DNA of 64,000 nt from Euryarchaeota archaeon UBA171 (lineage in GTDB: Archaea > Thermoplasmatota > Poseidoniia > Poseidoniales > Thalassarchaeaceae): positions 11,909 to 75,908 of the forward strand of contig DANO01000018.1 in the NCBI GenBank assembly GCA_002497295.1, written 5' to 3'. Below are positions 16,146-48,039 of this stretch, piece after piece. The translations under genes were made by a program, and so were the position numbers. How positions within the stretch are numbered: the stretch's first letter is position 1; every line of letters starts with the position of its first letter. Below the pieces are notes generated by a model. It did no database searches, had not been told where the DNA came from, and saw nothing but the letters and a program-made list of their open reading frames with translations.

Positions 16146-18704
16146 TCAAGCCTTGCCACTCATTCCTTTAATTTTTGAAGACGCCTCTTTCCTGATATTG
16201 GTGGCCAATTTGACACTCCACCCCTGAAGCGTAGATAGCTTGTTGATATCGGAATCAGTCATTGATGCAACATCGCTAACAGACTCCAGAGACAACTTCT
16301 CAATCATATCTCTAGCCCTTGACCTACCAACTCCACGAATTGAAACCAACTGAATTATGTCAGATCTACACCCATGTCTAATTCTGATTTGCACCTCTCG
16401 AAGAAGTTCAGTCAACGAATCGGCAATTGAACCATTATCCACAATATTCTCAGAAGACTCTGCAAGTATCCTGATTGACGACCTCAATAACCACTCCACA
16501 CCATCTACTCGTGATCTAATATCTCCTGGTTGAACTCCCCACGAGGACTCCAGTTCACCCATCGTTCGTTCCTCTATCCAATCTAATAGCATCGAAGTAG
16601 ATTTAACTCGTTCAAGCTCCTCAGTAACATCAAGTGAAATGAGCCTCTCTCGGTCATGGATGCTAGATCGAATTTCCATGTCCTCAAGCTCACTCCGCTT
16701 TACCCATAGCTTCTGAAAATCGGGAGTTGAAATCGTTAGATGGATGAGTGAGAACGGAGTAATCTGCCCTATATCATCGACACCCGAGAGTATGGCGCCA
16801 GCTCTAGACAGGCCATCAGATATTATCCGGCCTGAAATCGGATTGAGATACAGCCTTGCTACGGTTCTTCCAAGCCCTGTTGCCCGATACGTCATAGACA
16901 GGGATTCAGGTGCCTCTAGCACTGCCCTTTCAACATCACTTGCACGACTGAATCCGAAGACAGCGGGACCCTTTCTCGGACTTATCACACGTCTTTCGAG
17001 TATTTCTCGTTGAATGTTCTCAACTCTTACTAACCCTCCAGCAACCTTTGCCCAATCCGGAAGATCATCTCCCCAGTCTTCTTCCCGCTCCTCTGAGAAA
17101 TCAATCTCAGATATTCTCTCAGTGACTTTAGGATCTTCCCCAGATCTTTCTATCATGCCATTGTCTGCCAACCATACTATTGACCGATCGATCCTCGATT
17201 CCATCTCCTCATTATCCAGGGAATCTGCAAGAAATGTTTGAGCTAGGAATGAGCCCAGTGCGAATCTGTCATTCAGGCCCCCTGTCGCTATCAATGCCAA
17301 GAGATGGGTCAATAGGGCCGGATCCTCCTCGGCGATGGATGAATTAGGATTTGCAAGTTTGGAGACAATCGGCTCAATCCCTCCAAGTAAATATCGATCC
17401 ACGATAAACTGCTCTTCATCCGAATTCTTGGCTAATATCATGCCTTCACCATGAGGATCATAACCGGGCCTACCAGCCCTTCCTAGCATCTGACGGACCT
17501 CGATTGCTCTGATCGGCACTGATCCCCCAGCAGCGGAATTCCATCTCCTATGATCCCTTATCACGACCCTTCTCGAAGGTAGATTCACTCCTTGTGCCAA
17601 GGTCGGAGTGGCAACGAGTGCCGTTAAATTGCCCATTCTGAATGAATCCTCTATGATTCTCCTCTGCCGAGAGGAAAGACCAGCGTGATGAAATCCGATT
17701 CCTCTTGAAACAGATTCAGCCAATGCCTTGCTCATGGTAGTCCCTTCGCTAGCACCAGTAATCGACTTCGAAATACTCTCCCAATTTTCTATTTGAGATC
17801 GTATATTTTCATTCCCTTCTCTTTCGGAAATACGCTTGATGTGTTTAGACAATTCTCGGGCCTCTTTTTGCGCTGAAGCCCTTGAATTTACGAATATGAG
17901 AGTTTGTCCACCAGTCTCCATCGCATCGAGTACCAATGCCCTAAGATTTTGATTGGGGTTGCCAGATATTTCTCTAGGCGAGGGGAGATCCCTCTCAATC
18001 ATCCCATCTATTCTGTGAATCTTCAGATCCAGCCCATTCACAGTACCCGATTGAAGCTCCACAGGACGCCATTCAGATTTTACCAGATCGGCTTTGAGCC
18101 AATTCGCCACTGAATCTGAATTTCCAACCGTAGCTGATAGAGCTATGATCTGACATCCAGGTCTCTCATGCCTTATCCTGGCAATTATGATCTCGAGCGT
18201 AGGGCCCCTGCCAGGATCATCAAGAAGATGGAACTCGTCAATCACGATTGCCTCCGCATTATCTAGAAAATTTGGACGGGTCCGGATTAGAGAATCAAGA
18301 CGCTCGCTAGTACAGACAAGAACATCCCAGTCATGTAGGGAGCCCATCTCTTCTCCTCTATCTCCAAGAGCAAGACTTGCTTTGAGTCCAACTCCTTTGC
18401 ATAGCGCATGTATCTCTTCGTGCTTTTCGCTAGCCAATGCCTTTAGCGGAACCACGTAGATACCTCTCCCGCCATCACTCGAAATTACCTTCTGAAGCAT
18501 GCATATGTGCGCAACCAGAGATTTCCCACTTGCCGTGGGGATAGACAACATCAGATTCTTGCCTGTCAAGCCATGCCTGAGCGCCTCTTCTTGAGGAGGG
18601 TAAAGAGAATCTATTCCGAGCACATTCTCAACCGACTCAGCCAGTCTGGGATCAATGCCGAGAGAGCGAACTCTGGCCTGCGAACCAACTTCCATCATGA
18701 CCAT
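16146..18704 (-). CDS. hel308: Hel308/Ski2-like ATP-dependent DNA helicase
   Basis: Superfamily 2 motifs PTASGKSLVA (I), VIDEFH (II), SAT (III), HHAGL, TPTLAQGVNLP, QMLGRAGRPG (VI). C-terminal HhH-like domain (LVSIRGVGRSRARDMIE). At 852 aa it is longer than the usual ~700-720 aa because of acidic insertions in the winged-helix/ratchet region. Confidence 0.85.
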   Translation of the reverse strand: MVMMEVGSQARVRSLGIDPRLAESVENVLGIDSLYPPQEEALRHGLTGKNLMLSIPTASGKSLVAHICMLQKVISSDGGRGIYVVPLKALASEKHEEIHALCKGVGLKASLALGDRGEEMGSLHDWDVLVCTSERLDSLIRTRPNFLDNAEAIVIDEFHLLDDPGRGPTLEIIIARIRHERPGCQIIALSATVGNSDSVANWLKADLVKSEWRPVELQSGTVNGLDLKIHRIDGMIERDLPSPREISGNPNQNLRALVLDAMETGGQTLIFVNSRASAQKEARELSKHIKRISEREGNENIRSQIENWESISKSITGASEGTTMSKALAESVSRGIGFHHAGLSSRQRRIIEDSFRMGNLTALVATPTLAQGVNLPSRRVVIRDHRRWNSAAGGSVPIRAIEVRQMLGRAGRPGYDPHGEGMILAKNSDEEQFIVDRYLLGGIEPIVSKLANPNSSIAEEDPALLTHLLALIATGGLNDRFALGSFLAQTFLADSLDNEEMESRIDRSIVWLADNGMIERSGEDPKVTERISEIDFSEEREEDWGDDLPDWAKVAGGLVRVENIQREILERRVISPRKGPAVFGFSRASDVERAVLEAPESLSMTYRATGLGRTVARLYLNPISGRIISDGLSRAGAILSGVDDIGQITPFSLIHLTISTPDFQKLWVKRSELEDMEIRSSIHDRERLISLDVTEELERVKSTSMLLDWIEERTMGELESSWGVQPGDIRSRVDGVEWLLRSSIRILAESSENIVDNGSIADSLTELLREVQIRIRHGCRSDIIQLVSIRGVGRSRARDMIEKLSLESVSDVASMTDSDINKLSTLQGWSVKLATNIRKEASSKIKGMSGKA

Positions 18705-30484: not shown

Positions 30485-31060
30485 ATGCAACCATATTATG
30501 TGATTTACATCCCAGATGCTATTCCTGTGTCTGAAGATCTCAATCTAAGAGCTGCCCGACTCGATGATGCGATTAAACTGTTCAGGGTCGTCAATAAAAA
30601 TAGAATATTTCTGAGAAAACATCTGCCCTGGCTCGATGATACAAATAGCATATCTGACGAGACTGACTTCATCCTCGATCAATCCGAGAAAGCCAATAGA
30701 ATGGAGGCCATGCTATTGCTGCTCGAATATAAGAATGAAATCGTGGGGACATTGAGCATAAATCGAATCGATCATGGGAATAGAACTGCGTGGATAGGAT
30801 ATTGGTTGGATCAAGATCATTGCGGAAATGGCTTGATGACTAGATCGGCAGGCGCATTGATAGATGTTCTACTGAATGCCTGCGCATTCCATCGAGTTGT
30901 GATAGAAGCAGGCATCGACAATCTGCCCTCCAGAGCGATACCGGAGAGGCTAGGTTTCCGAGAAGAAGGCGTGAGCGTCGAGAGAGAATGGCTCTACGAT
31001 CATTGGATTGATATTGTTCAATATGCAATAACTGCTAGAGAATGGAATATCATCCATTAA
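30485..31060 (+). CDS. GNAT family N-acetyltransferase (RimJ/RimL-like)
   Basis: LRAARLDDA...FLRKHLPWLD...WIGYWLDQDHCGNGLMTRSAGALIDV...N.PSRAIPERLGFREEG. The ORF track start (30365) overlaps the divergent kynA start, so ATG 30485 is preferred. Confidence 0.7.
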   Translation: MQPYYVIYIPDAIPVSEDLNLRAARLDDAIKLFRVVNKNRIFLRKHLPWLDDTNSISDETDFILDQSEKANRMEAMLLLLEYKNEIVGTLSINRIDHGNRTAWIGYWLDQDHCGNGLMTRSAGALIDVLLNACAFHRVVIEAGIDNLPSRAIPERLGFREEGVSVEREWLYDHWIDIVQYAITAREWNIIH

Positions 31061-33156
31061 GCCTTCAGAAGCCCGTGATCTATCAGATCACAATTTCCCG
31101 ACGGGAGTGCAGCAAGAACTTCGCCGTGATCAAGCCCTGTAGCTTTCGATATACGCCTTGCGATATCTTCTTTCTTTTCTTTTCCAGGGGTTATCTCCGC
31201 CCAACGACTGCATAAATTGCCAATTGCAGATACGGAGCCGGGTACAGGCATAGGAATGCCATTAACCGTCCCCAGTCCGATTGCCATTTTCAATACAAGA
31301 TCCCGGTGCCACCCCCTGGTGCCTCGTACCACGAATGAACCTCTGCCCAGTGATTCTCCACTTTCTGTGGCCTTGCTTACTTGAGCGGGCCGGACATGGA
31401 AGGCTGTCGCAGCTGCCGAACCAGCCCCCCATGCTCTTGACCAGCATGCTGCTAAAGCCGCCGCCTCTTCTTTCTCATCTTCTGAGAGCATCTGAAGGTC
31501 TTCAGGAGCCCCATTTATGGACTGTATGATCCTGAAATTACAAACTCCTTCTAAAGCAATATCGTCATCTTCCCCCAGTTCCAAACCATCCACTCTCTTG
31601 AGGGCGCATGAGGCTGCTCCATGGAGATCGGCATGAAGATATAGATCGCCTGTTGAAAGATGCCTTTTCACCACCGCATCGTTACCGCGGGCATCTCTCC
31701 CGCCCACCATCAACCTGCCCGGGCCCACAATGCCCCATCGATAGCGTTCAAACCAAAACCTCCTGGTTCTACGTACTGATACTATCTTACCCTTATTACG
31801 CTCTTTTTCAGCTTTAGAAGAAATCTTCTTTTGCTCACTTTCCGTCTTCTGTAGTGCCTTTCTGGCTCCTTCTGCCTTGGCCTTCAGCGTATGTGCTCGT
31901 TCAAAGTAATCTTGGGCACTCTGATGCACTGTGCCCTCTATCGAAATCAGTACCTCTTGACCAGGCTTCCCATCTGAATCAGGCATGAGTACCTTTGCGT
32001 TCTTACTGGCTGGGTCAATCTTTGAAATCCATTTTGAAACGGATGCCTGTTCCGATGTCAAAGACCATCCGACCTTGGATACTTGTTGTTCAATCTGAGA
32101 TCTTATCTCTTCAAGATGGACCCATTCTTCAAGCATGGACGAGCCCTTCTTCTGGAGTACCGAAGCCTCCTCCACGAATGACTCTATACCCTCTCGTTGT
32201 TGATTGGCTCTTCGAGCTAGCCTGTCATCGTCCCTGCCCCCTTCTTCTTCTAGCACCGCTTCTTCCACTCTTCTGGCCAGGGCTTTTGCATCATGTTCAC
32301 CGTAGATTGAGTCAATGGCTGCACACAGGGACTCGGCAGCCTCTCGAGCAAGACCCTCACCTGGTGAATGGGTGAATGGTGAGAACAACTTGTTTGAGGC
32401 CCCTTCACCTTCGGACCATATCGAACCTTCCCCTATCTTGTCAGACTCCTCCATAAGGGTTTGAATGGTCTCTATTAGCGAGGACCGCTCCTTATCGCCA
32501 AGATCCGGGATTGAAGATCGCGGGTCAATTTCTGAAATTCTACACACCAACTCTGCATATCTTCTCCCGAGATTCACTCTCCCAGCGAGGGTACGCTCCA
32601 AGTCGCGATCACCTTCTTTGAAAAGATCGGATAACCCCTTCTCATCAAGTGTGCGGGGATCTGTAGCGGAAGGAGGCGGCGAATAACGCTCTCCTCTTTT
32701 TAGCACCCTGCTTCTGTAGGCTGCACTGGTGAGTGGTTGGATGATGATATCTTCATCATCAATCAGAATCGCATTACCGTCTCTGAACATCTCGATAATA
32801 AGTGAAATTTTTCCCCGCCCATGCTCAAAATCAAGTCGAAGAACTCTGTCAAATCCTATCTGGAGAACTCCAATTAGTCGTGCATTTCCGAGATATTTTC
32901 TCAAAGTCATTGCAAACGAGGAAGGATTTTGGGGCATAGGGCGATCTCGTTCGGAAAGATAGACCCTCTTGCCCCTTACGATTACAAGATCAACCGGACT
33001 CGAGCCGCTTTTTTTCATTCTGAGTACGACCTGCTCATAATGCGGCTGATATGCCTTCTGAGCACGTGCGCCAACCAGTTGCTCAAGTTCGACGCGCACT
33101 CTCGCTACATCAAAGGCGGACATTGCAATTTCAGATACCATATTCGTCCCCCTCAC
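31057..33156 (-). CDS. Rqc2/NEMF/FbpA (NFACT) family ribosome quality-control protein homologue
   Basis: NFACT-N-like N terminus (SAFDVARVRVELEQLVGARAQKAYQP...VLRMKK), central coiled coil, and NFACT-R/DUF814 motif (GRDARGNDAVVKRHLSTGDLYLHADLHGA); 699 aa. Confidence 0.75.
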   Translation of the reverse strand: MRGTNMVSEIAMSAFDVARVRVELEQLVGARAQKAYQPHYEQVVLRMKKSGSSPVDLVIVRGKRVYLSERDRPMPQNPSSFAMTLRKYLGNARLIGVLQIGFDRVLRLDFEHGRGKISLIIEMFRDGNAILIDDEDIIIQPLTSAAYRSRVLKRGERYSPPPSATDPRTLDEKGLSDLFKEGDRDLERTLAGRVNLGRRYAELVCRISEIDPRSSIPDLGDKERSSLIETIQTLMEESDKIGEGSIWSEGEGASNKLFSPFTHSPGEGLAREAAESLCAAIDSIYGEHDAKALARRVEEAVLEEEGGRDDDRLARRANQQREGIESFVEEASVLQKKGSSMLEEWVHLEEIRSQIEQQVSKVGWSLTSEQASVSKWISKIDPASKNAKVLMPDSDGKPGQEVLISIEGTVHQSAQDYFERAHTLKAKAEGARKALQKTESEQKKISSKAEKERNKGKIVSVRRTRRFWFERYRWGIVGPGRLMVGGRDARGNDAVVKRHLSTGDLYLHADLHGAASCALKRVDGLELGEDDDIALEGVCNFRIIQSINGAPEDLQMLSEDEKEEAAALAACWSRAWGAGSAAATAFHVRPAQVSKATESGESLGRGSFVVRGTRGWHRDLVLKMAIGLGTVNGIPMPVPGSVSAIGNLCSRWAEITPGKEKKEDIARRISKATGLDHGEVLAALPSGNCDLIDHGLLKA

Positions 33157-38644: not shown

Positions 38645-39249
38645 ATCGGCCCCATCACCATTCTCGGGTCAGGATATTTGGCAAGCGCCTCTTCTCTGTG
38701 CGCAGGATCGACTACCCCTGGCATGTCATGGGTTCCAGGATCGGACCACGACAGCTGAAAGTGGACATGAGGGTCCCAGCCGCCATTCTCATGTTTATCG
38801 CCCATCCAGCAAATCACCTCGCCTCTCGATATCTTTTGCCCTACTTCTTTGCCAGCAATCGAATCTGAATTCAGATGCCCGTAAAGAGCCCATATAGGAC
38901 GGTCCCCGATGAAATGTTTGGTGATCAATACATTCCCATAATCTCCATCAGCTGGATTGTATCCAAAGTACGATACCACCCCTTGTTCAAATGCCATGCA
39001 AGGAGTCCCTACCGGACCTCCGATATCTATGCCAATGTGTAGGAATCTGCCATCAGAGAAGAGATCTGTAGAATACATGCCGGGCCGCAACTCGTCATAT
39101 CTGCCAATGTCAAATTCGAATTCAGAGGGCGCATATTCGCCTGTCGTAAAATCTCTTACTTCGTACTCTTCTGGGAGATTCACTATTGGATGATAATCGC
39201 CATGAAAAATATCAACCATGTATTCTCTGAGTGTGTCAATCTTCATCAA
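38638..39249 (-). CDS. M23 (LytM-type) metallopeptidase family protein, no signal peptide
   Basis: HIGIDIGGPVGTPCMAFEQGVV (HxxxD), YGHL, and GWDPHVHFQL (HxH). 203 aa with no N-terminal hydrophobic segment. Confidence 0.7.
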   Translation of the reverse strand: MMKIDTLREYMVDIFHGDYHPIVNLPEEYEVRDFTTGEYAPSEFEFDIGRYDELRPGMYSTDLFSDGRFLHIGIDIGGPVGTPCMAFEQGVVSYFGYNPADGDYGNVLITKHFIGDRPIWALYGHLNSDSIAGKEVGQKISRGEVICWMGDKHENGGWDPHVHFQLSWSDPGTHDMPGVVDPAHREEALAKYPDPRMVMGPIY

Positions 39250-40438
39250 CTATGGCATACGGTTGGGATTCTATTTCCTTTGGCTCTGGAAGTTTCCCTA
39301 AAGTTTCTGAAACTTTCAGTTGATCTAATTTCCTCGCTTGAGGAAGAACCCTAGATTCATACGAGCGCATTGTTTCATTGTACTTCTTTGTAGCATGATC
39401 CAAGTGAGTTCCCATTTTCATCATATGAGATATCATTGTTTCAACTCGATTATACATCTCCTCGGTAACCTCGTAAATTGTAGAAGCGGACTGACTGAAT
39501 TCATATTGTTTCCAGTAGAGGGCCACAGTCCGCAACAGTCCCAGCATGGTCACGGGAGTAGCAATCAATACTTTCTTACTCATTGCGTAATCCATGAGAT
39601 TCGGATTAGTAGTGAAGGCTGAAGCAGCCATTGCCTCGCTAGGGATGAACATTATCACATGGTCGAAATCTCCCTCGATGGAATCCTGATAGGACTTAGC
39701 ACTCAGTCTTGTTATTGTCTTCTTCATGGCTTCAGAATGTTCGTCAAGAAGTCTATTCTGCTCATCTCCGGGCCCCAATTCGACTGCTGAGAGGTAATGA
39801 TGACCAATTGCTTTAGAATCGATTGGAATCACACCATCTTTCGGCAACCTAACGATATAATCGGGCCTCCCGGATTCTACTTTCTCTTGTTCAAAGAAGT
39901 CGACATGTTCAGTCATTCCTGCCATTTCAAATATCCTCCGAAGCTTAACTTCCCCCCATTTACCTCTTTCATTCGGTGAGGTGGTTAGGGTCGTAGCCAA
40001 TGCAGTAGTCCGGAAACTAAGGTTCTCTGCCTTGTCTCCCAGATCTTTTAGCTGCCTCTTTATCGCCTCGTAAGCCCCCTTGCGTTCTGTCTCAATTTTT
40101 TGATTAGATTGAGATAATTTTTCCATTTCATCCCTAAGAGGCCTGATTAAATTTTCAACTTCGACTTTTCTTTTATCGATACCCTTCTCGGCCTCGGAAT
40201 TGACTTTTCCAAGCCTTTCCTCCGCAAGTCTAAGGAAGTCCTCATTTTGCTTTCTTCCGATATCAGCGGCGATATTCTCCATTTGAATTTTCAAGGTTGA
40301 CTCAGAAGCAGATTGAGCCTTCATCCGCTCCTCGGTACGAATCATGTCTCCTCTCATCCTTTGCATCGCTAAGAGCCAACCTATTGCCAAACCAGACAAC
40401 AATCCAATCAGGAGTATAGCTACTGTCGGAATATCCAC
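39236..40438 (-). CDS. rmuC: DNA recombination protein RmuC
   Basis: N-terminal TM helix, long coiled coil, and C-terminal nuclease-like domain with PDYIVRLP...IPIDSK...VIMFIPSEAM and LIATPVTMLGLLRTVALYWKQ. GTG start. Confidence 0.85.
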   Translation of the reverse strand: MDIPTVAILLIGLLSGLAIGWLLAMQRMRGDMIRTEERMKAQSASESTLKIQMENIAADIGRKQNEDFLRLAEERLGKVNSEAEKGIDKRKVEVENLIRPLRDEMEKLSQSNQKIETERKGAYEAIKRQLKDLGDKAENLSFRTTALATTLTTSPNERGKWGEVKLRRIFEMAGMTEHVDFFEQEKVESGRPDYIVRLPKDGVIPIDSKAIGHHYLSAVELGPGDEQNRLLDEHSEAMKKTITRLSAKSYQDSIEGDFDHVIMFIPSEAMAASAFTTNPNLMDYAMSKKVLIATPVTMLGLLRTVALYWKQYEFSQSASTIYEVTEEMYNRVETMISHMMKMGTHLDHATKKYNETMRSYESRVLPQARKLDQLKVSETLGKLPEPKEIESQPYAIVDED

Positions 40439-40549
40439 AAAGCACGACTAACATTGAGAGTAGATAAAGACATAGATGATGTCCATACTAAGGGAAGATA
40501 AGAATTAGAGAACCGTTTGCCGACTGTTGTGCGAACAAAGCATCTTGCG

Positions 40550-41161
40550 ATGAGAATCTCGAAATTAGATGATTTCACCTCGCCAATGATCGAACTTGAA
40601 CAGTATACTACCAAGGGAAACTTAGCAGCCAGATGGATACGCCTCGCGAAGGATATGGGAGACATTCCAATGGGCTGCACAGTAGCAGATCTAGGATGTG
40701 GTACGGGTGTATTGGGGCTTGGCGCGTTGTTTTGCGGCGCTTCGAATGCAATTATGATCGATATCGATCAATCTGCGTTAGACATAGTGTACAATAATGC
40801 AGGCAGCGAAGGATTCTCCAAGAATATCGAAATTATCTGCTCTGATGTTGCTGCAGTGACTCTTGAGCATACGGATCTCATACTCTGCAACCCCCCGTGG
40901 GGAACACAAAAGATGGGTGCCGATGCACCATTCTTGGAAGCCATCAGAAATGCTGGTGTGCCAGCATACATGCTCCATTCCAGTGATGCTAAGCATGTAG
41001 CGGCAAGATTTGATTCATGGGGCTGGCACGTCCATGAGGTATTCAGTGCGCAATTCGATCTGGGTTCTTCACACACCCATCATACAAGGAGACGAGTGAT
41101 GACCCAAGCCACTCTCTGGAGGCTCCTACCACCGGATGCAACATCGCCGGACCGTTCATAG
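40550..41161 (+). CDS. METTL5/COG2263-like class I SAM-dependent (N6-adenine type) RNA methyltransferase
   Basis: LEQYTT at the N terminus, SAM-binding VADLGCGTGVLGLGA, and catalytic NPPWG in LCNPPWGTQ. ATG 40550 is preferred over the TTG at 40517. Confidence 0.65.
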   Translation: MRISKLDDFTSPMIELEQYTTKGNLAARWIRLAKDMGDIPMGCTVADLGCGTGVLGLGALFCGASNAIMIDIDQSALDIVYNNAGSEGFSKNIEIICSDVAAVTLEHTDLILCNPPWGTQKMGADAPFLEAIRNAGVPAYMLHSSDAKHVAARFDSWGWHVHEVFSAQFDLGSSHTHHTRRRVMTQATLWRLLPPDATSPDRS

Positions 41162-41172
41162 GCGACTCTCAG

Positions 41173-42417
41173 GTGGCATACCTCATGGGAACCTCATCTG
41201 ACGTTGTCAGCCCGGGGCAGCTCACCGACATAACCCCTGATTCTGAGTTGGGGCCAGGGTTGTCTGCAACCGATAGAGGAGTGGTGGCTCTGGTCACAGG
41301 AACCCTTCATCAGGAAGATGGGACATGGTCCGTGAAGGAATCGAATCTCGGAGTCAACAATCTGGAAGTCGGTGATGATTTCATCGGAGAGGTACACGGA
41401 TTGCAGCCGAAAGTCGCAATAATCAGGATAATCAGCGTCGAGAAACCCGGCATGGAAGCCAAGTCCCTTCCTGCAAAGGAACTCTTTGCCGACATAACCG
41501 TCACAGAACTATGCGACCGATTCATGCCTTCGGCCGGCGATGCAATGAGGAGACGAGACATAGTCCGCGCCCGTGTCACGTCTACGGACCCCATGATACG
41601 CGCAACGACCAAGTCCGCACATACGTTAGGAGTCCTCCATGCGATTTGCACGGCTTGCGGGGAACCGCTACACGCCAGTGATTCAAAACCCGATTTCAAT
41701 GTGGCCTGCAATCGATGTGACTACACAGGCTACAGAGTACTATCATCCGACTTCAACAGGCTCAACGGCATGGACTCTTCAGAGTTGAATCGAGAGGGCA
41801 CCAGATGGTCATCCGAGGCTGATGGGATGCTCGGTCACGATGGTGCCCGCCCCTATCTCTCCCCAGTTGCAGACCATCGAAGGGGATGGTCGCATGAGAT
41901 GCCGAGAGAGGCCGCTAGATCGAGGTCGAGACAAGGCCGAGACCGTCCAAGGAGGGAGATGCATGATGCGAAATGCACTCTCTGCGGCAAAGACACCAAG
42001 GTTCCATTCAAACCAACTATGGGTAAGCCGATTCGTTGCAGCGATTGTCTTGAAGCTGTTAAGCAGGGGGATGCAGATGAGGAGAAACTCGCAGCAGAGA
42101 GAAAGCTGCTGATATCTCTCAGAAAAGAGGCTGAAGCAAACGCTCCCCTGAGGCTATTCGTGGGGAGGCTATCCAGAGATGCCACTGAGGCAGATATCAA
42201 GAAAGCATTCGGAGAGCATGGCGAAGTCGTCGACTTCCATATGCCAGTTGACAGGGATACAGGCAACCCCCGGGGATTCGCATTTGTCACACTGTCTCCG
42301 AAATCCGCTGGAGAAGCTGCCATTAAAGCCCTAAACGGTGCAGAGTTAGCAGGAAGAAAGATCGTTGTAGAGGCCAGTCAGAGAGAAGGCGGGGATCGTC
42401 GTCGAAAGCGGCGATGA
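41173..42417 (+). CDS. csl4: Exosome cap subunit Csl4 fused to a CxxC-x17-CxxC zinc ribbon and a C-terminal RRM domain
   Basis: Residues 1-195 follow the archaeal Csl4 layout: SPGQ N-domain, S1 barrel (VGDDFIGEVHGL ... RRRDIVRARV), and Zn ribbon (CTACGEPL...CNRCDY). Then come an R-rich linker, CTLCGKDTKVPFKPTMGKPIRCSDC, and an RRM with RNP-2 LFVGRL and RNP-1 RGFAFVTL, ending in an RRRKRR tail. It is one uninterrupted 414-codon frame. Confidence 0.75.
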   Translation: MAYLMGTSSDVVSPGQLTDITPDSELGPGLSATDRGVVALVTGTLHQEDGTWSVKESNLGVNNLEVGDDFIGEVHGLQPKVAIIRIISVEKPGMEAKSLPAKELFADITVTELCDRFMPSAGDAMRRRDIVRARVTSTDPMIRATTKSAHTLGVLHAICTACGEPLHASDSKPDFNVACNRCDYTGYRVLSSDFNRLNGMDSSELNREGTRWSSEADGMLGHDGARPYLSPVADHRRGWSHEMPREAARSRSRQGRDRPRREMHDAKCTLCGKDTKVPFKPTMGKPIRCSDCLEAVKQGDADEEKLAAERKLLISLRKEAEANAPLRLFVGRLSRDATEADIKKAFGEHGEVVDFHMPVDRDTGNPRGFAFVTLSPKSAGEAAIKALNGAELAGRKIVVEASQREGGDRRRKRR

Positions 42418-44237
42418 CTGCGAAGCATCAAGCACGAACCCCTTCTCGAAAGTATATGGCCGGTGCTTGGCTGGTCTTGGATGGTTACGAGGACGAACCT
42501 GCTGCGTTCGGGGTCCCGAATTACATCGGCTTTCACGCCAGATACATTTGCGGCGTCTTCGAGGAGAGAGGAATAGACTACAGATATTCCACGATTGATG
42601 ATTTGAGGCTTAGAAGGCGAGCATCACATCGCACGGGTGAAGATTCACTGATGCCGGATGCCGAAGATATAGAGGGAGTAGTCATTCTAGCAGGCGCTGT
42701 AGTGCCTGGGAAATATATCAGGGGGACCCCAATCAGCCGTAAAGAGGTAGACTCCATACTGCCTTCAATCCCATCTGGATGTCCGATTCTGATTGGAGGG
42801 TGGGCCGTGCGGATATGGCGCCAGGATGGGTGGACGCCCTTGAGGAAGAACCTCTTCCTTTCCCTGCAGGATACCGATGCTACCCTAGAGAGTTTCCTTG
42901 CAACAGGGAAGTGGTCTCATCGCAGAAGGACGTCAGAGCAATGGTCAAGATGGGCATTTAGGGGAGCATCTTCCAGAGCGGTGACCGATCATCCAGACAT
43001 CATCTCCCCAAATGGGAGTCCTGGGCCACTCACCTACGAGGTTGAATTGTACCAAGGCTGTGTGAGGTACAAGAGGGGGTGCAAGTTCTGCATAGAGCCC
43101 AAGAAAGGGGTGCCTCTCTGGAGAGATGAGGAGGACGTCATAGCAGAGGTAGAATCTGCGACTGATGCAGGCATACGGAATATTAGGATTGGAGGGGCCA
43201 CAGATGTGTATACCTACAAGGCTGAAGGAGTGATAGATCTTGAGTACCCCATTCCAAACCCTGAGCCCATTGCGAAGGTTCTGCATGAGATACGTGATGA
43301 TGAGCGAATCGAGGTGCTTCATGTCGATAATGCAAATCCTTCGATTATAGCCGAGAATCTGGAACCATCTGAGCAGATAACGAAGACACTGGTCAATACG
43401 CTTACAGACGGGGCTGTCCTTTCCTTTGGTTTGGAGTCTGCCGACCCAGCGGTGCATGATGCAAACTGGCTGAACTGCAATACTGAACAGCTTATGACTG
43501 CAATCAGGCATGTGAATGAACATGGCCGAGAACGTGGTCCAAGAGGCCTACCGAAGATGCTCCCCGGATTGAATTTAATCGCCGGTCTGAATGGCGAGAC
43601 GGAAGCCACCTATCAGATGAATCTCAAATTGCTCAGATCAATTCTTCAAGAGGGTCTAATGCTTCGGAGAATCAACATAAGACAGGTAGAGGGGGCTGGC
43701 TTTCAAGAAGTCCCGAAGAAGGCATTTTCCGCATTCAAGAAAGAAGTCAGAGCCACAATCGACACCCCCATGCTTGAACGACTCCTTCCAGTCGGAACAA
43801 TTCTGAGGAACGTTTGGTGGGAATCCAGCGGAGATAGAATAAGGCTGCCTGAGCAGGTGGAGAACCCCTCTTACAGGGATGCATCAAGACACGGGCGACC
43901 AGGGATAACCTTCGGAAGACAGATCGGCGCTTATCCAATTCTCGTGGGCGTCCCCTACCAGATCCCTCTAGAGACGATGTCCGATGTCCTAGTGACAGGC
44001 CATGGATCTAGAAGTGTCTCTGGAGTTGAATTGGGCCTGAACACGATGAAGGCAACAGAGGCCCAATTCAACTCCATACCCGGCATCGGAAATAAGACTG
44101 CGTGGGCATTGGTTTCCACACGGGCAAAATCATTGTCCAAGAATAGGCCCATTCGTAGTACAGAGCACCTATTCAGCGAAGCAGGGGCCCATCTCCCAGA
44201 TTATGCCCGGGAGATACTCGAGCACCCTACTGGATAG
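42414..44237 (+). CDS. Radical SAM-like Fe-S protein with C-terminal helix-hairpin-helix (COG1031-like)
   Basis: Cys cluster GCVRYKRGCKFC, TIM-barrel-like middle, and C-terminal HhH FNSIPGIGNKTAWALV. 4-nt overlap with the csl4-RRM gene. Family assignment is from memory. Confidence 0.6.
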   Translation: MTAKHQARTPSRKYMAGAWLVLDGYEDEPAAFGVPNYIGFHARYICGVFEERGIDYRYSTIDDLRLRRRASHRTGEDSLMPDAEDIEGVVILAGAVVPGKYIRGTPISRKEVDSILPSIPSGCPILIGGWAVRIWRQDGWTPLRKNLFLSLQDTDATLESFLATGKWSHRRRTSEQWSRWAFRGASSRAVTDHPDIISPNGSPGPLTYEVELYQGCVRYKRGCKFCIEPKKGVPLWRDEEDVIAEVESATDAGIRNIRIGGATDVYTYKAEGVIDLEYPIPNPEPIAKVLHEIRDDERIEVLHVDNANPSIIAENLEPSEQITKTLVNTLTDGAVLSFGLESADPAVHDANWLNCNTEQLMTAIRHVNEHGRERGPRGLPKMLPGLNLIAGLNGETEATYQMNLKLLRSILQEGLMLRRINIRQVEGAGFQEVPKKAFSAFKKEVRATIDTPMLERLLPVGTILRNVWWESSGDRIRLPEQVENPSYRDASRHGRPGITFGRQIGAYPILVGVPYQIPLETMSDVLVTGHGSRSVSGVELGLNTMKATEAQFNSIPGIGNKTAWALVSTRAKSLSKNRPIRSTEHLFSEAGAHLPDYAREILEHPTG

Positions 44238-47200
44238 GTTCCCACTGCACGCTCATCGAACCGTTCGGGGCGACACGTAGCACAGGACGCCATTTTGCAC
44301 CATCGGTTCCCTCGGGTATCGAGGATCGTATCCCGCGCAATATTTCCGGGTGCAGATCAACCGACAGAGCCGACGAACTCGACTCATACCTGCCATCTCC
44401 GATATTCACTCTTTCAATCGGGACAGGAGGTGGTGCCAGCGGCGGAGTTCCTTCGTCATCGTCGCTCTCGGCCCCGCTCTCCTCGGATTCGACGTCTTCA
44501 TCTTCATCCTCAGCCTCATTCGTCTCAGGCTCGATATCAATCACATCTTCCTGCACCTCTTCAGCTTGGGCACCTCTCGAGTCATCCGTTTTCTTGAGTC
44601 CGATGTCTTCCAATATGGTCTCAGAGCTCTCCTTTGCTGTACCAATACCCAACCCTCCTCTTGAGGCATAGAGGACGCCCTGTCCAACCAGCGACATCGC
44701 CGCAGCGAATAGCATCACGACGAACACAAGGTCATTTTGACTCGGAACGACCATGAAGCCCAGAGGCATTCCAATAAGCCCGAAACCCCTCCTCCAAGAT
44801 TCGTCTCTGGAGAACCCCAGCATGGAGTGATGTGCCGATATTGTAAGCACCAGTGCAGGAAAAATCAGGCCATAGCCGTCAATTGAGTAAGCATATCCTG
44901 CTATAAGGGCCCAAACACTCGAAAACTTGCTGAGCTCTTCACCCTTCTCGGAGATCGATATTTTCCCGATTGTCCAAGGCCCTTTCCATACAATGTAGAT
45001 TAAAGCCAGACACTGCAGAATTGGAATCAACAATAGCGTCTCTTCATGAAGATCGAGATCTCGATAGCCCATTGTTGGCCATGCTATTGTCTGCAGAGAT
45101 ATACCCAGATAGAGCAGTTTCTCACGACCCGATACTATCCCGTCCACAGTCATTACTACCGACGATATGACCCATGTGACGTAACCGATGTCCCATGCGA
45201 ACCAAAGTAGGAAATACATCCAGACGCGACTTGTCAACCCCACGAGGGCCACAGGATCATACGACTTCTCGATGCCCCATCCTTCGGGTAGATACTCTTC
45301 GAGTTGGACATCTTCAGCATCGTAGTTCCTGGCTAGAAGGCCACTTTTTTGGATCACTACTTGAATACCAGAAATAACTGCTCCCATCAGACAACCTATC
45401 GCAAATATTTCGTTGCCACTAAAATCGATCCATGAATTGTCGAGCATCCACTCGAGCATGGCCCATATGCCGAAAACAAACGACAAAGGAGCGACATTGA
45501 ACCACCAAATGATTCCATTCGCCCATGCCCAGGCCCACATCCCCGCAGCTATGAAGATCCATACCAATCTGAAGTCGGGTATCAGAAAGGCGAAAGCAAG
45601 AATGCCTGCAATTCCGATGCTGAACCTTTCCTCAGCACCCCATCGAGTATCCCCCTCAGGTCGATCCTCAACTCGAATAGCATAGGCTGAAAGGCCAATC
45701 TGTAAAAAGAGCAGAAGACTCGCCCATCTCGGGATATCCATCACCCCAGATTCCTCTCCAAGGAAAGGAATGCTGTCAAGTACGGAGGCGAGAGTCATTT
45801 CCGGAGCAACGCCCCCAGTCAATACCCCTGCGTAGATTGTGGCAGCTATTGGGAGTGCTAGCAGTATCCACGTATTGACATGGGTAGTGGCGCGATAGGC
45901 GACTATCGCAAAGACGGGTATTGCGAGTAACCCTCCTGAGACATCTGTCGCACCTATCGCGATCAGGGATAGTAGCGTGAAGGACCCTATGGTTCGCGCC
46001 TCGTCGGACAGGTCCTCTATCGTCTTGAGCATCCTGTCTACAACAACCAGTGGTGCTACCACCACGATGTCTCTCAGCACCCTTTCGAAGAATCTTACTG
46101 ACTCCCCATCAATTTCTGGACTGGTATTGAACTGTGCTGTTGAAATGATTGCAAAGACTGCAATGCAGGCGGCCCCTGCAAGTCGATGTAGGGGGCTGAC
46201 ACGCCCCATGGCCCCGCATTCCGCAACTAGAAGGCCACCTGCCGCTGCGATGTGGAATATCGCTAACCTCCACTCGAGTATGTCGACATCTGACAAGGTC
46301 CCGCTTCCATTGAAGCTGTCTGAATAGGTTATGTCCCCTGGTACGGCAAGCATCGAAGCGAGCACCAAGAACAGCGAAGTGAACCCGAATGGCGTCAGTA
46401 GTATGGAGGCCTCGCCCCTCTTTCGTGAGCGGGCCTCCACGTAGATAGCCAGCCCAACCACGAGAGGTAGCAGATTGGCATGAGCGAACTCGAGTGGAAC
46501 GACGCCCCTGTCTCTGATGGCAACAATGGATATCGCAAGAGCTAGAATAGGGATGCATACCAAATTCCACCTTGAACCGACGAGAGTGGAATTTTCATCC
46601 CATAATTTGTTTTCATCTCTGCCGATATCTGTCCTCCGCAGCTGTACCAATGCTACGATGATCAGAACTATTGGCAGAAACTCTCCAGCTTTGTCAGAAA
46701 GTGGCACTAGGGCCCCTGCCAGAATCGCAACTGAGGAGCCGCTAGATGAATTGAACCGGCCTCTTGATTCACTCCATATGCCTAGGCCGATCAAAACGGG
46801 AAGCAATCCCAGCCCGAGCCCATGGGCGTTACTAATCTCGACGCCTCCAATGTCCAGGAATACACCTCCCTGGCTGCTTGCAATCGCTGCAGAGATGAAC
46901 CATGCGACGATCATCGCCCAATATGTCGATCGAACAACCCAGTCCCTAGCATGATCACGAGTTTCGAGATAAACGAATGCACCGATTCCTACTACCCATG
47001 CGATCAATGCAGCTTCCGCTTCCAATAGTGAAAGTGCCAATGCAAGGCCTATGGGCATGGCGGGAGTCCTCTGCATCGTTGTCGGTGCGAACCATCCCAC
47101 GAGTAGAGCGGCCCACAACCAGAATGAAAGTCCGAAAGGTTGCTCAGTAATCGATAAAGAACCCAACACGAAGTTAGCCTGGCCATTGGATGCAACAATC

Positions 47201-48039
47201 TGCAATAGAAGGATTCCGAAAATAACAAACCAAGAGCTCTGCTCAATCATCTCTCTGGATAGCCCGCGATCCGTAGCAGTCATTCCCACGATTACTACCA
47301 TTATGGTCATCCAACCCCCTGATTCTACACCCAGGCTCAATACCACAAGTGCTGGAATTGCCATACTAGCCCCTGCAGATATCAGGTACAGAACCGATCG
47401 ATCGAGTCTAAGTGCATGAATCATCGCAGCACTCAGCAGCAAAACGTGTGAGATTGTATTCCACTGCTCGAAAACTCCCCCTGCATAGTCCACCCATATC
47501 GAAACCGCAGATAGAGAGAGGGAAATCGGTGCGAGTATGACGATAGTCCGGGGAAGAGTTCCTAGATTATGCCGATCGATCATTCTAGTGGATATCTCCA
47601 TGACTAACAACATGAAAATCGTCTGTGCTATCGCTAGCTCAACAGTGGGCGCCCACTGCCCTTCAATGAACTGGCCAGTGTACGCTTCAGCTTCCCACAG
47701 GGCGAAAGCGGAGTATCGCGAGAGCCAGATTGATGCAAGTGCACCCGACAGTACTGCGGTGGCAGCAACATAGTCCTCCACCATATTTTGATTCCGATCG
47801 CTACCCTCTCGGCTGCGCCGCCACTCATGGAAACCTATGCAGCTCACTGCAACGGTTCCGAGCATGCCTCCCAAAATCAGGTAAGAATGGTCACTTTCAG
47901 CCGTCAGTTCGAATGTCACGTAATAAATGGCATATGCAAGGACCGCCGCACCCAAACCTATCGATGCGTAGAAGCCCGCTTTTGCCTCATCAAATCCTCC
48001 GCTAGATATCGTCGCGTTTCCCGGCCCGGGCTTTTCCAT
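44227..48039 (-). CDS. Giant polytopic membrane protein (more than 30 predicted helices) with acidic linker and small C-terminal soluble domain; function unknown
   Basis: The 1270-aa ORF is almost entirely hydrophobic segments of 18-25 aa separated by short loops (about 35 counted by eye). It ends with a D/E-rich stretch (EDEDEDVESEESGAESDDDEG), a PPLAPPPVP linker and a ~70-aa domain. No family recognised. Confidence 0.7.
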   Translation of the reverse strand: MEKPGPGNATISSGGFDEAKAGFYASIGLGAAVLAYAIYYVTFELTAESDHSYLILGGMLGTVAVSCIGFHEWRRSREGSDRNQNMVEDYVAATAVLSGALASIWLSRYSAFALWEAEAYTGQFIEGQWAPTVELAIAQTIFMLLVMEISTRMIDRHNLGTLPRTIVILAPISLSLSAVSIWVDYAGGVFEQWNTISHVLLLSAAMIHALRLDRSVLYLISAGASMAIPALVVLSLGVESGGWMTIMVVIVGMTATDRGLSREMIEQSSWFVIFGILLLQIVASNGQANFVLGSLSITEQPFGLSFWLWAALLVGWFAPTTMQRTPAMPIGLALALSLLEAEAALIAWVVGIGAFVYLETRDHARDWVVRSTYWAMIVAWFISAAIASSQGGVFLDIGGVEISNAHGLGLGLLPVLIGLGIWSESRGRFNSSSGSSVAILAGALVPLSDKAGEFLPIVLIIVALVQLRRTDIGRDENKLWDENSTLVGSRWNLVCIPILALAISIVAIRDRGVVPLEFAHANLLPLVVGLAIYVEARSRKRGEASILLTPFGFTSLFLVLASMLAVPGDITYSDSFNGSGTLSDVDILEWRLAIFHIAAAGGLLVAECGAMGRVSPLHRLAGAACIAVFAIISTAQFNTSPEIDGESVRFFERVLRDIVVVAPLVVVDRMLKTIEDLSDEARTIGSFTLLSLIAIGATDVSGGLLAIPVFAIVAYRATTHVNTWILLALPIAATIYAGVLTGGVAPEMTLASVLDSIPFLGEESGVMDIPRWASLLLFLQIGLSAYAIRVEDRPEGDTRWGAEERFSIGIAGILAFAFLIPDFRLVWIFIAAGMWAWAWANGIIWWFNVAPLSFVFGIWAMLEWMLDNSWIDFSGNEIFAIGCLMGAVISGIQVVIQKSGLLARNYDAEDVQLEEYLPEGWGIEKSYDPVALVGLTSRVWMYFLLWFAWDIGYVTWVISSVVMTVDGIVSGREKLLYLGISLQTIAWPTMGYRDLDLHEETLLLIPILQCLALIYIVWKGPWTIGKISISEKGEELSKFSSVWALIAGYAYSIDGYGLIFPALVLTISAHHSMLGFSRDESWRRGFGLIGMPLGFMVVPSQNDLVFVVMLFAAAMSLVGQGVLYASRGGLGIGTAKESSETILEDIGLKKTDDSRGAQAEEVQEDVIDIEPETNEAEDEDEDVESEESGAESDDDEGTPPLAPPPVPIERVNIGDGRYESSSSALSVDLHPEILRGIRSSIPEGTDGAKWRPVLRVAPNGSMSVQWEPIQ

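Follow-up and report, generated by a model that had tools for sequence, protein, structure and literature searches.

Almost everything known about the archaeal exosome comes from a few thermophiles, and its choice of substrates is credited to Rrp4, Csl4 and the separate subunit DnaG. RNA-binding domains at the entrance of RNase PH-type rings also select substrates in the other domains of life: the eukaryotic exosome uses adaptors that contain RNA recognition motifs (RRMs), such as RBM7 in NEXT and Nrd1/Nab3, which are separate, exchangeable cofactors, and bacterial PNPase carries KH and S1 domains fused on its catalytic chain. The canonical archaeal Csl4 (A. fulgidus AF0206, PDB 2BA1; S. solfataricus) consists of an N-domain, an S1 barrel and a C4 zinc ribbon and stops just past the ribbon, at ~180-200 aa. 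Previous work showed that the Csl4 N-domain is the main anchor on the ring, that the C-terminal domain of DnaG mediates its binding to the Csl4-exosome, and that wild-type Csl4 is a poor binder of poly(A) (Hou et al. 2014, PMC4227792). When the N-terminal RNA-binding domain of DnaG was placed at the C-terminus of S. solfataricus Csl4 and reconstituted as the Csl4-NT exosome, the complex gained poly(A) binding and degraded A-rich RNA more strongly (Hou et al. 2014, PMC4227792). Here we describe a gene at positions 41173..42417 of a 64,000-nt stretch of Euryarchaeota archaeon UBA171 (contig DANO01000018.1, positions 11,909 to 75,908 of the forward strand; hereafter the window). This gene probably encodes the Csl4 cap subunit of the exosome in Marine Group IIb (MGIIb), with RNA-binding hardware fused to its C-terminus, for which we infer a tethered role in RNA capture. 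Unlike the eukaryotic adaptors and PNPase, the Marine Group II (MGII) version has its RRM and zinc finger as a covalent part of the cap subunit, adding ~220 residues to the canonical Csl4.

The reading frame runs for 414 codons from a GTG without any internal stop. Translation probably begins at ATG 41185, since an AGGTGG element (41171-41176) lies 8 nt 5' of this codon and the nearest homologs are 410 aa long with the N-terminus MGTSS. From end to end, the protein is composed of a full Csl4 core, a conserved extension, a CxxC-x17-CxxC finger, a helix, an RRM and a basic tail. The modules are listed below, with conservation given as the fraction of columns at least 95% conserved in an alignment of 74 MGII orthologs and model confidence given as the predicted local distance difference test score (pLDDT).

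41173..42417, forward strand: Csl4-zinc finger-RRM fusion gene, 414 codons from GTG; likely true start ATG 41185, giving 410 aa.
41194..41346, forward strand: Csl4 N-terminal domain (aa 8-58), within the NCBIfam Csl4 match; pLDDT 84-88; 8/51 columns.
41347..41637, forward strand: S1-type beta-barrel of Csl4 (aa 59-155), colinear with 2BA1_A; pLDDT 72-92; 29/97 columns.
41638..41757, forward strand: Csl4 C4 zinc ribbon (aa 156-195; C159, C162, C179, C182), aligning to the A. fulgidus Csl4 ribbon; 18/40 columns.
41758..41907, forward strand: conserved post-ribbon extension (aa 196-245, ...LNREGTRWSSEADGMLGHDGARPYLSPVADHRRGWSHE); 24/50 columns.
41908..41958, forward strand: variable Arg-rich spacer (aa 246-262), its length varying among orthologs; pLDDT < 50; 1/17 columns.
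41959..42060, forward strand: CxxC-x17-CxxC zinc finger (aa 263-296; C268, C271, C289, C292), matching PF23477 and TIGR04272; 16/34 columns.
42061..42147, forward strand: charged alpha-helix between zinc finger and RRM (aa 297-325), modelled as helix over 303-323; pLDDT 82-84; 6/29 columns.
42148..42378, forward strand: canonical RRM (aa 326-402; RNP-2 LFVGRL, RNP-1 RGFAFVTL), from the RRM_1 match and the model; 12/77 columns.
42379..42417, forward strand: basic tail (GGDRRRKRR) and stop codon; its composition is kept among orthologs, its sequence is not.

A first-pass annotation of this DNA had proposed the Csl4, CxxC-x17-CxxC and RRM architecture, which proved to be real, unbroken and conserved according to profiles, models and orthologs. 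Its placement of the zinc finger at 41974-42048 and of the RRM at 42151-42378 was correct, and the motifs it had named (CTACGEPL...CNRCDY, CTLCGKDTKVPFKPTMGKPIRCSDC, LFVGRL, RGFAFVTL and RRRKRR) were each located in the translation. Searches with profile hidden Markov models (HMMs) matched Csl4, the zinc finger and the RRM as separate modules.

The NCBIfam Csl4 equivalog PRK09521 (the Csl4 family is arCOG00676) aligned to aa 11-194 over positions 2-178 of the 180 in the model (E 3.9e-22, 78.9 bits). Comparison of the full-length protein to the PDB by sequence was dominated by RRM matches; with the N-terminal 205 aa as the phmmer query, aa 21-195 aligned colinearly with residues 13-175 of the 179 in A. 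fulgidus Csl4 (2BA1_A, E 4.6e-5). A first AlphaFold model, built from a shallow MGIIb-only alignment, rendered the Csl4 core poorly (pLDDT 61.7) and placed 2BA1 at rank 45 in Foldseek. It was replaced by a second model from a more diverse alignment including a distant sister form, which reached pLDDT 78.4 overall and 83-92 across the Csl4 core. The best PDB match of this second model was 2ba1_A (E 5.1e-14, template modelling (TM) score 0.65, 187 columns), and the top 17 matches were all Csl4 chains, with ranks 2-17 coming from yeast, human and Chaetomium exosomes. Modelling recovered both the Csl4 fold and the RRM fold. The VxPG motif of the N-domain (V12, P14, G15) was invariant in both MGII fusion forms described below, ECR1_N was detected in the sister fusion forms, and the four ribbon cysteines were invariant among MGIIb orthologs. 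A weak Pfam match to DUF7351 at aa 158-205 fell under the cutoff of that family and was disregarded.

A homolog search of 5.8 billion proteins, clustered at 90% identity, returned >200 clusters of full-length relatives (388-479 aa, 49-92% identical, 94-100% query coverage), all of which carried Pfam RRM and zinc-finger matches. Scanning the GTDB species-representative genomes found 156 encoding stretches, and locus comparisons were made on the best 80 of these with +/-10 kb flanks. The 80 stretches were labelled Marine Group II, Poseidoniales, Thalassarchaeum or as a generic archaeal metagenome-assembled genome (Euryarchaeota, Methanobacteriota, Thermoplasmatota). When the open reading frame (ORF) was re-derived at each locus, all 73 complete ORFs were continuous (410-525 aa) and none was split; each had a single CxxC-x17-CxxC and a single RNP-1 motif. 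A stop or frameshift in relatives, which the first-pass annotation had named as one way for the fusion claim to fail, was absent from the complete orthologous ORFs, which kept all modules.

These data bear directly on whether the long ORF is an artefact in which a frameshift, chimeric assembly or read-through has joined a normal Csl4 to a separate RRM gene. Artefacts do arise in the family data, as one 219-aa protein (P0171) looks chimeric or rearranged: it begins as an N-terminal piece of RmuC and continues with the post-ribbon motif and the first part of the zinc finger. RmuC (39236-40438, reverse strand) is the second gene upstream of Csl4 in the window, so P0171 probably arose by mis-assembly or by a rearrangement within this region. 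For the window gene itself the chance of such an artefact is negligible: the 73 continuous ORFs come from independent genomes, the >200 clusters span essentially the whole query, and the junction region is among the best-conserved stretches of the protein. The frameshift or chimera explanation was rejected on the strength of the unbroken ORFs.

Conservation across the 74 orthologs shows that the extension, finger, helix and RRM are under purifying selection across the order. The nearest relatives of the window (SAT1510 at 96%, UBA52, UBA552 and UBA558) are MGIIb by the Tully 2019 classification, and the fusion is lineage-wide, being the standard Csl4 of MGIIb (Thalassarchaeaceae-type). One correction to the first-pass annotation is that the fusion extends beyond this genome, as the standard form in MGIIb and one of several Csl4 fusions.

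Gene order places the fusion in the position of an ordinary Csl4. In virtually every MGII locus with enough flank, a methyltransferase gene lies directly 5' of the fusion, and one is also found 5' of the Csl4 fusion in two sister-form loci (L081 and L082). An ordinary 190-aa metagenomic Csl4 (L085) is found in the gene order Dph2 - methyltransferase - Csl4 - RpoL. Its methyltransferase shows end-to-end homology to that of the window (28% identity, E 5e-31), and the 190-aa Csl4 matches the window Csl4 core end to end (E 1e-17). Because the methyltransferase-Csl4 pair is homologous to the pair found with an ordinary Csl4, the fusion holds the ancestral Csl4 slot, and it is the Csl4 ortholog of its lineage. 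The upstream methyltransferase is thus a feature shared with canonical Csl4, along with the three colinear domains and the best structural match, whereas the usual downstream RpoL is replaced in the MGII fusion loci by a radical-SAM gene.

When aa 1-245 were compared exhaustively by phmmer to 1.84 billion representatives, the relatives fell into three tiers: the MGIIb family itself, a set of long proteins at 30-42% identity, and Csl4 proteins of ordinary size (180-200 aa) that were 25-31% identical. Several architectures were present in the second tier, including Csl4 with two RRMs (P0124, P0125, P0127, P0128, P0131, P0134, P0137), Csl4 with one RRM (P0129), and Csl4 with two CxxC-x17-CxxC fingers and an RGG-rich tail (P0130). 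The two-RRM form comprises ~40 clusters and, where named, belongs to Candidatus Poseidoniaceae (MGIIa). NCBI names it 'exosome complex RNA-binding protein Csl4', and IMG names it 'RNA recognition motif-containing protein/exosome complex RNA-binding protein Csl4' or 'nucleolin'. In a joint alignment, the sole RRM of the window protein corresponded to RRM2 of the MGIIa form, with the finger and helix standing in place of RRM1. MGIIa proteins (e.g. P0346, P0368; ~465 aa) therefore share with the window form the Csl4 core, the invariant residues of the extension, a homologous last RRM and the order methyltransferase - Csl4 - radical SAM (L081). They differ by the first RRM in place of finger and helix, by an extra acidic C-terminal 'SSRELRALxEEE' motif that is absent from the window form, and by already being called Csl4 in NCBI PGAP and IMG, which the window form is not.

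Variation was also seen within these sister forms. Acidic C-terminal motifs, SSRE[LM]RA[LI]xEEE or REAAARREEG and in many cases followed by KKKRRR, were found in MGIIa fusions (e.g. P0346, P0367) and in P0130, and could be an auto-regulatory or docking element. In one two-RRM sub-lineage (P0137/P0333), two of the four ribbon cysteines are replaced by serine (CSNSG...CHTSG), and this ribbon may no longer bind zinc. P0130 lies on a 3.0 Mb contig (L082 10001-11383) and carries its two fingers and long RGG/GGR-rich tail without an RRM; a PrmA-type methyltransferase is located ~900 nt upstream.

The two added folded domains were each assigned by strong profile matches. Pfam zf_Tbcl_2 (PF23477) matched aa 261-295 with 50.9 bits against a cutoff of 27, and TIGR04272 (CxxC-x17-CxxC) matched aa 261-296 with 51.5 bits against a cutoff of 36. 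The cysteines C268, C271, C289 and C292 are invariant across MGIIb. Two small M. mazei proteins of the CxxC-x17-CxxC family have been shown to bind zinc by inductively coupled plasma mass spectrometry, and the finger of the fusion is likewise predicted to be a zinc binder. Pfam RRM_1 (PF00076) matched aa 328-397 over positions 1-69 of its 70, with 62.7 bits against a cutoff of 20.7. In the model, strands at 326-331, 351-356, 369-375 and 398-401 and helices at 339-347 and 377-387 form the beta1-alpha1-beta2-beta3-alpha2-beta4 topology, and Foldseek aligned this domain to solved RRMs with TM scores of 0.88-0.95. The RNP-1 aromatics F369 and F371 are invariant in both fusion forms and the RNP-2 residue F329 is invariant within the MGIIb set. 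Since the RNP aromatics are intact, the RRM would be expected to bind single-stranded RNA.

The extension between the ribbon and the spacer follows a near-invariant pattern, LNRxGxRWSxEAExxLGHDGARPYLSPVADHRRG. Everything from the ribbon to the finger had been described as an Arg-rich linker in the first-pass annotation, a description that fits the variable spacer at aa 246-262 and fails for aa 196-245 given their 24 highly conserved columns out of 50. Residues G209, R211, W212, D234 and R236 are invariant in the two-RRM form too, and because these key residues are common to both forms, the extension is probably older than the split of the C-terminal heads. It had no Pfam relative, and when searched alone against the PDB it gave no match at E <= 10. 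As the second model was moderately confident for aa 196-229 (pLDDT 72-78) and not for aa 230-260 (< 55), the extension most likely packs in part on the Csl4 body and in part forms a docking or RNA-contact peptide.

This extension raises the question of whether the added modules serve mainly in protein docking or regulation, recruiting DnaG, the ribosome, the methyltransferase or the radical-SAM enzyme, or auto-inhibiting the pore. The best-conserved addition is indeed the extension, whose predicted disorder over aa 230-260 is typical of a docking peptide, and its neighbours in the operon are conserved too. Protein contacts are made by some RRMs and zinc fingers, and the Foldseek matches of the RRM include Y14 from the Y14-Mago structure ('A novel mode of RBD-protein recognition'). 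We nevertheless consider a mainly protein-docking function quite unlikely, as the aromatics that stack on RNA are invariant (RNP-1 in both forms, RNP-2 F329 within MGIIb) and sister lineages substitute a second RRM for the finger or add RGG repeats, which are RNA-binding solutions. Furthermore, Csl4-NT demonstrates that capturing RNA suffices to produce an effect.

The reading of these proteins as exosome subunits depends on the presence of an exosome in MGII. Supplementary Data 10 of Tully 2019 (PMC6336850) counts RRP4, RRP41 and RRP42 as core, each present in 137-138 of the 158 MGIIb genomes and 85-86 of the 92 from MGIIa, and likewise dnaG (132/158 MGIIb, 84/92 MGIIa); an entry for CSL4/EXOSC1 is found in no sheet. 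The same study reports a 'CIRBP' cluster exclusive to MGIIb (143/158 MGIIb, 0/92 MGIIa), and its 'MGIIa-unique core' sheet holds a 'PABPC' entry present in 77/92 MGIIa and 0 genomes outside (Tully 2019, PMC6336850). IMG labels one member of the window family 'cold-inducible RNA-binding protein'; the other database names of this form are 'CxxC-x17-CxxC domain-containing protein' and 'hypothetical', and it is never called Csl4. It would appear, then, that the CIRBP entry is the Csl4-zinc finger-RRM protein labelled by its RRM, and the PABPC entry is probably the two-RRM Csl4 labelled in the same way. The 'missing' MGII Csl4 would thereby be accounted for in the annotation, as CIRBP in MGIIb and probably as PABPC in MGIIa.

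The presence of dnaG also addressed a hint in the first-pass annotation that an RRM on the cap could do the work of DnaG. Replacement of DnaG by the RRM was rejected, as dnaG is core in both MGII families (Tully 2019, PMC6336850). The accompanying statement that RRMs are very rare in archaea does not apply to MGII, where small stand-alone RRM proteins and further RRM-type clusters are found: 115-aa 'RNA-binding protein' genes consisting of an RRM occur in MGII, and Tully 2019 Supplementary Data 10 (PMC6336850) lists 'RBM17/SPF45' clusters as core in both families and 'HNRNPL' in MGIIb only.

The arrangement of the window protein matches that of Csl4-NT, in which an RNA-binding domain on the C-terminus of full-length Csl4 assembles into the exosome and shifts its RNA preference, and this shared topology is the reason for proposing an RNA-capture arm. 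The proposal is supported by the invariant RNP aromatics, by the use of other RNA-binding heads in sister lineages, and by the basic tails. In the proposed mechanism, the N-domain would attach the protein to the Rrp41/Rrp42 ring, as it does in other archaea, and the flexible Arg-rich spacer would tether the finger-helix-RRM unit above the entry pore. Single-stranded RNA captured by this unit would be held at a higher local concentration at the S1 pore, which could tune the choice of RNAs that are degraded or tailed. DnaG would probably still be bound, so that the arms supplement it and do not replace it. Csl4-NT differs from the natural fusion in being artificial, in carrying an added domain unrelated to RRMs or zinc fingers, and in mimicking DnaG, while MGII retains DnaG. 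With this precedent (Hou et al. 2014, PMC4227792), extra RNA-binding capacity in the exosome cap, as the first-pass annotation had suggested, appears to be the best reading of the gene.

Several points weigh against the reading of the gene as an RNA-capturing exosome subunit. The Csl4 HMM score of 78.9 bits is below the curated NCBI naming cutoff of 90; this shortfall reflects divergence, not a missing domain, and it is the reason that annotation pipelines do not call the fusion Csl4. Among the folded modules, conservation is lowest in the N-domain, which presumably anchors the protein to the ring, with 8 of 51 columns at least 95% conserved and a median identity of 39% between the orthologs and the window protein. 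Presence of Rrp41, Rrp42 and DnaG in MGII is taken from a published KEGG-based table, and the equation of CIRBP with the window gene is suggested by the phyletic pattern together with the IMG name. Finally, the CxxC-x17-CxxC domain is known only for zinc binding, making its contribution to RNA contact a conjecture.

The weak conservation of the N-domain would also fit a Csl4 that has been exapted away from the exosome to become a free RNA-binding protein, for example a chaperone or a cold or stress protein, leaving MGII with an Rrp4-only cap. Generic RNA-binding features abound in the protein (S1, RRM, basic tail, Arg-rich spacer), and the literature describes both Csl4-less exosomes in Undinarchaeota and Cluster 2 DPANN and Rrp4-only caps that work in vitro. 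Exaptation is unlikely, however, considering that the three-domain Csl4 layout is kept, that the VxPG motif and ribbon cysteines are invariant over ~50% sequence divergence, and that the ancestral methyltransferase-Csl4 locus is maintained. Every related lineage also retains the Csl4 core while exchanging its C-terminal modules. That the core stays constant while these modules are swapped argues for a conserved function of its own.

A literature search of incomplete coverage found no description of a Csl4-RRM fusion in either form, or of RRMs in MGII. The first-pass annotation had suggested that the protein would be a previously uncharacterised exosome architecture, and this stands insofar as no paper was found and the window form has never been named Csl4; it does not stand for the MGIIa form, which is already Csl4 in NCBI and IMG. 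Through that name the idea of a Csl4 fusion is already latent in the databases, and the fusion is an uncharacterised version of an established subunit and does not represent a new type of system. What the MGII proteins add is an order of globally abundant marine archaea with RNA-reading domains fused to the exosome cap in at least three interchangeable versions, which amounts to a natural experiment on the ways in which machines built on an RNase PH ring gain substrate selectivity, and to a concrete exosome system that can be tested.

A broader and more tentative possibility is that Poseidoniales and related marine Thermoplasmatota use Csl4 as a modular platform, with a near-invariant, lineage-specific docking motif behind the ribbon and interchangeable RNA-reading heads (zinc finger plus RRM, two RRMs, or two zinc fingers plus RGG). 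Such a platform might build sequence-selective decay and tailing into the exosome of the most abundant planktonic archaea, as an independently evolved functional analogue of the eukaryotic exosome and its RRM adaptors. It would be co-transcribed with an RNA methyltransferase and with an uncharacterised radical-SAM enzyme by which substrates might be marked. The 50-residue extension and the conserved methyltransferase-Csl4-radical SAM operon are both flagged as worth study.

Two genes flank the fusion on the same strand.

40517..41161, forward strand: upstream methyltransferase, 214 aa, MTS/PrmA-type (Pfam MTS 49.2 bits, PrmA 42.8 bits).
42414..44237, forward strand: downstream radical-SAM protein, 607 aa (Pfam Radical_SAM 34.6 bits).

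Only 11-23 nt separate the stop codon of the methyltransferase (41159-41161) and the fusion start. At the other end, the radical-SAM ATG overlaps the TGA of the fusion (ATGA, 42414-42417), an overlap that suggests translational coupling of these two genes, and all three genes are likely co-transcribed. Most MGII loci keep the radical-SAM gene behind the fusion, with identities of 62-69%, and in L081 the two-RRM form is likewise followed by a radical-SAM gene, this one of 364 aa. The 607-aa protein of the window had no NCBIfam or PDB relative, and showed a weak HHH match near its C-terminus.

None of the 33 window proteins compared to NCBIfam and/or Pfam (32 genes besides the fusion, with ~13 ORFs at the ends unscanned) was a ring subunit or DnaG. 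Searching by tblastn with S. solfataricus Rrp41 gave no match in the window or in the 80 loci, whose flanks extend only +/-10 kb. The reverse strand at 44227-48039 encodes a polytopic membrane protein of 1270 aa whose C-terminal region is acidic; tblastn found it in the MGIIb sub-clade of the window (L001-L006, L058) and in no other MGII loci. A further peculiarity of the RNA and ribosome machinery in these lineages is the absence of ribosomal protein S27e from Poseidoniales (MG-II) and Pontarchaea (MG-III), as given in the Dombrowski 2020 supplement. Other genes on the reverse strand of the window include the archaeal ribosome-rescue protein RqcH (31057-33156, NF041120, 495 bits) and a Hel308-type helicase (16146-18704) that matched PRK02362 with 628 bits, under the model cutoff of 887.

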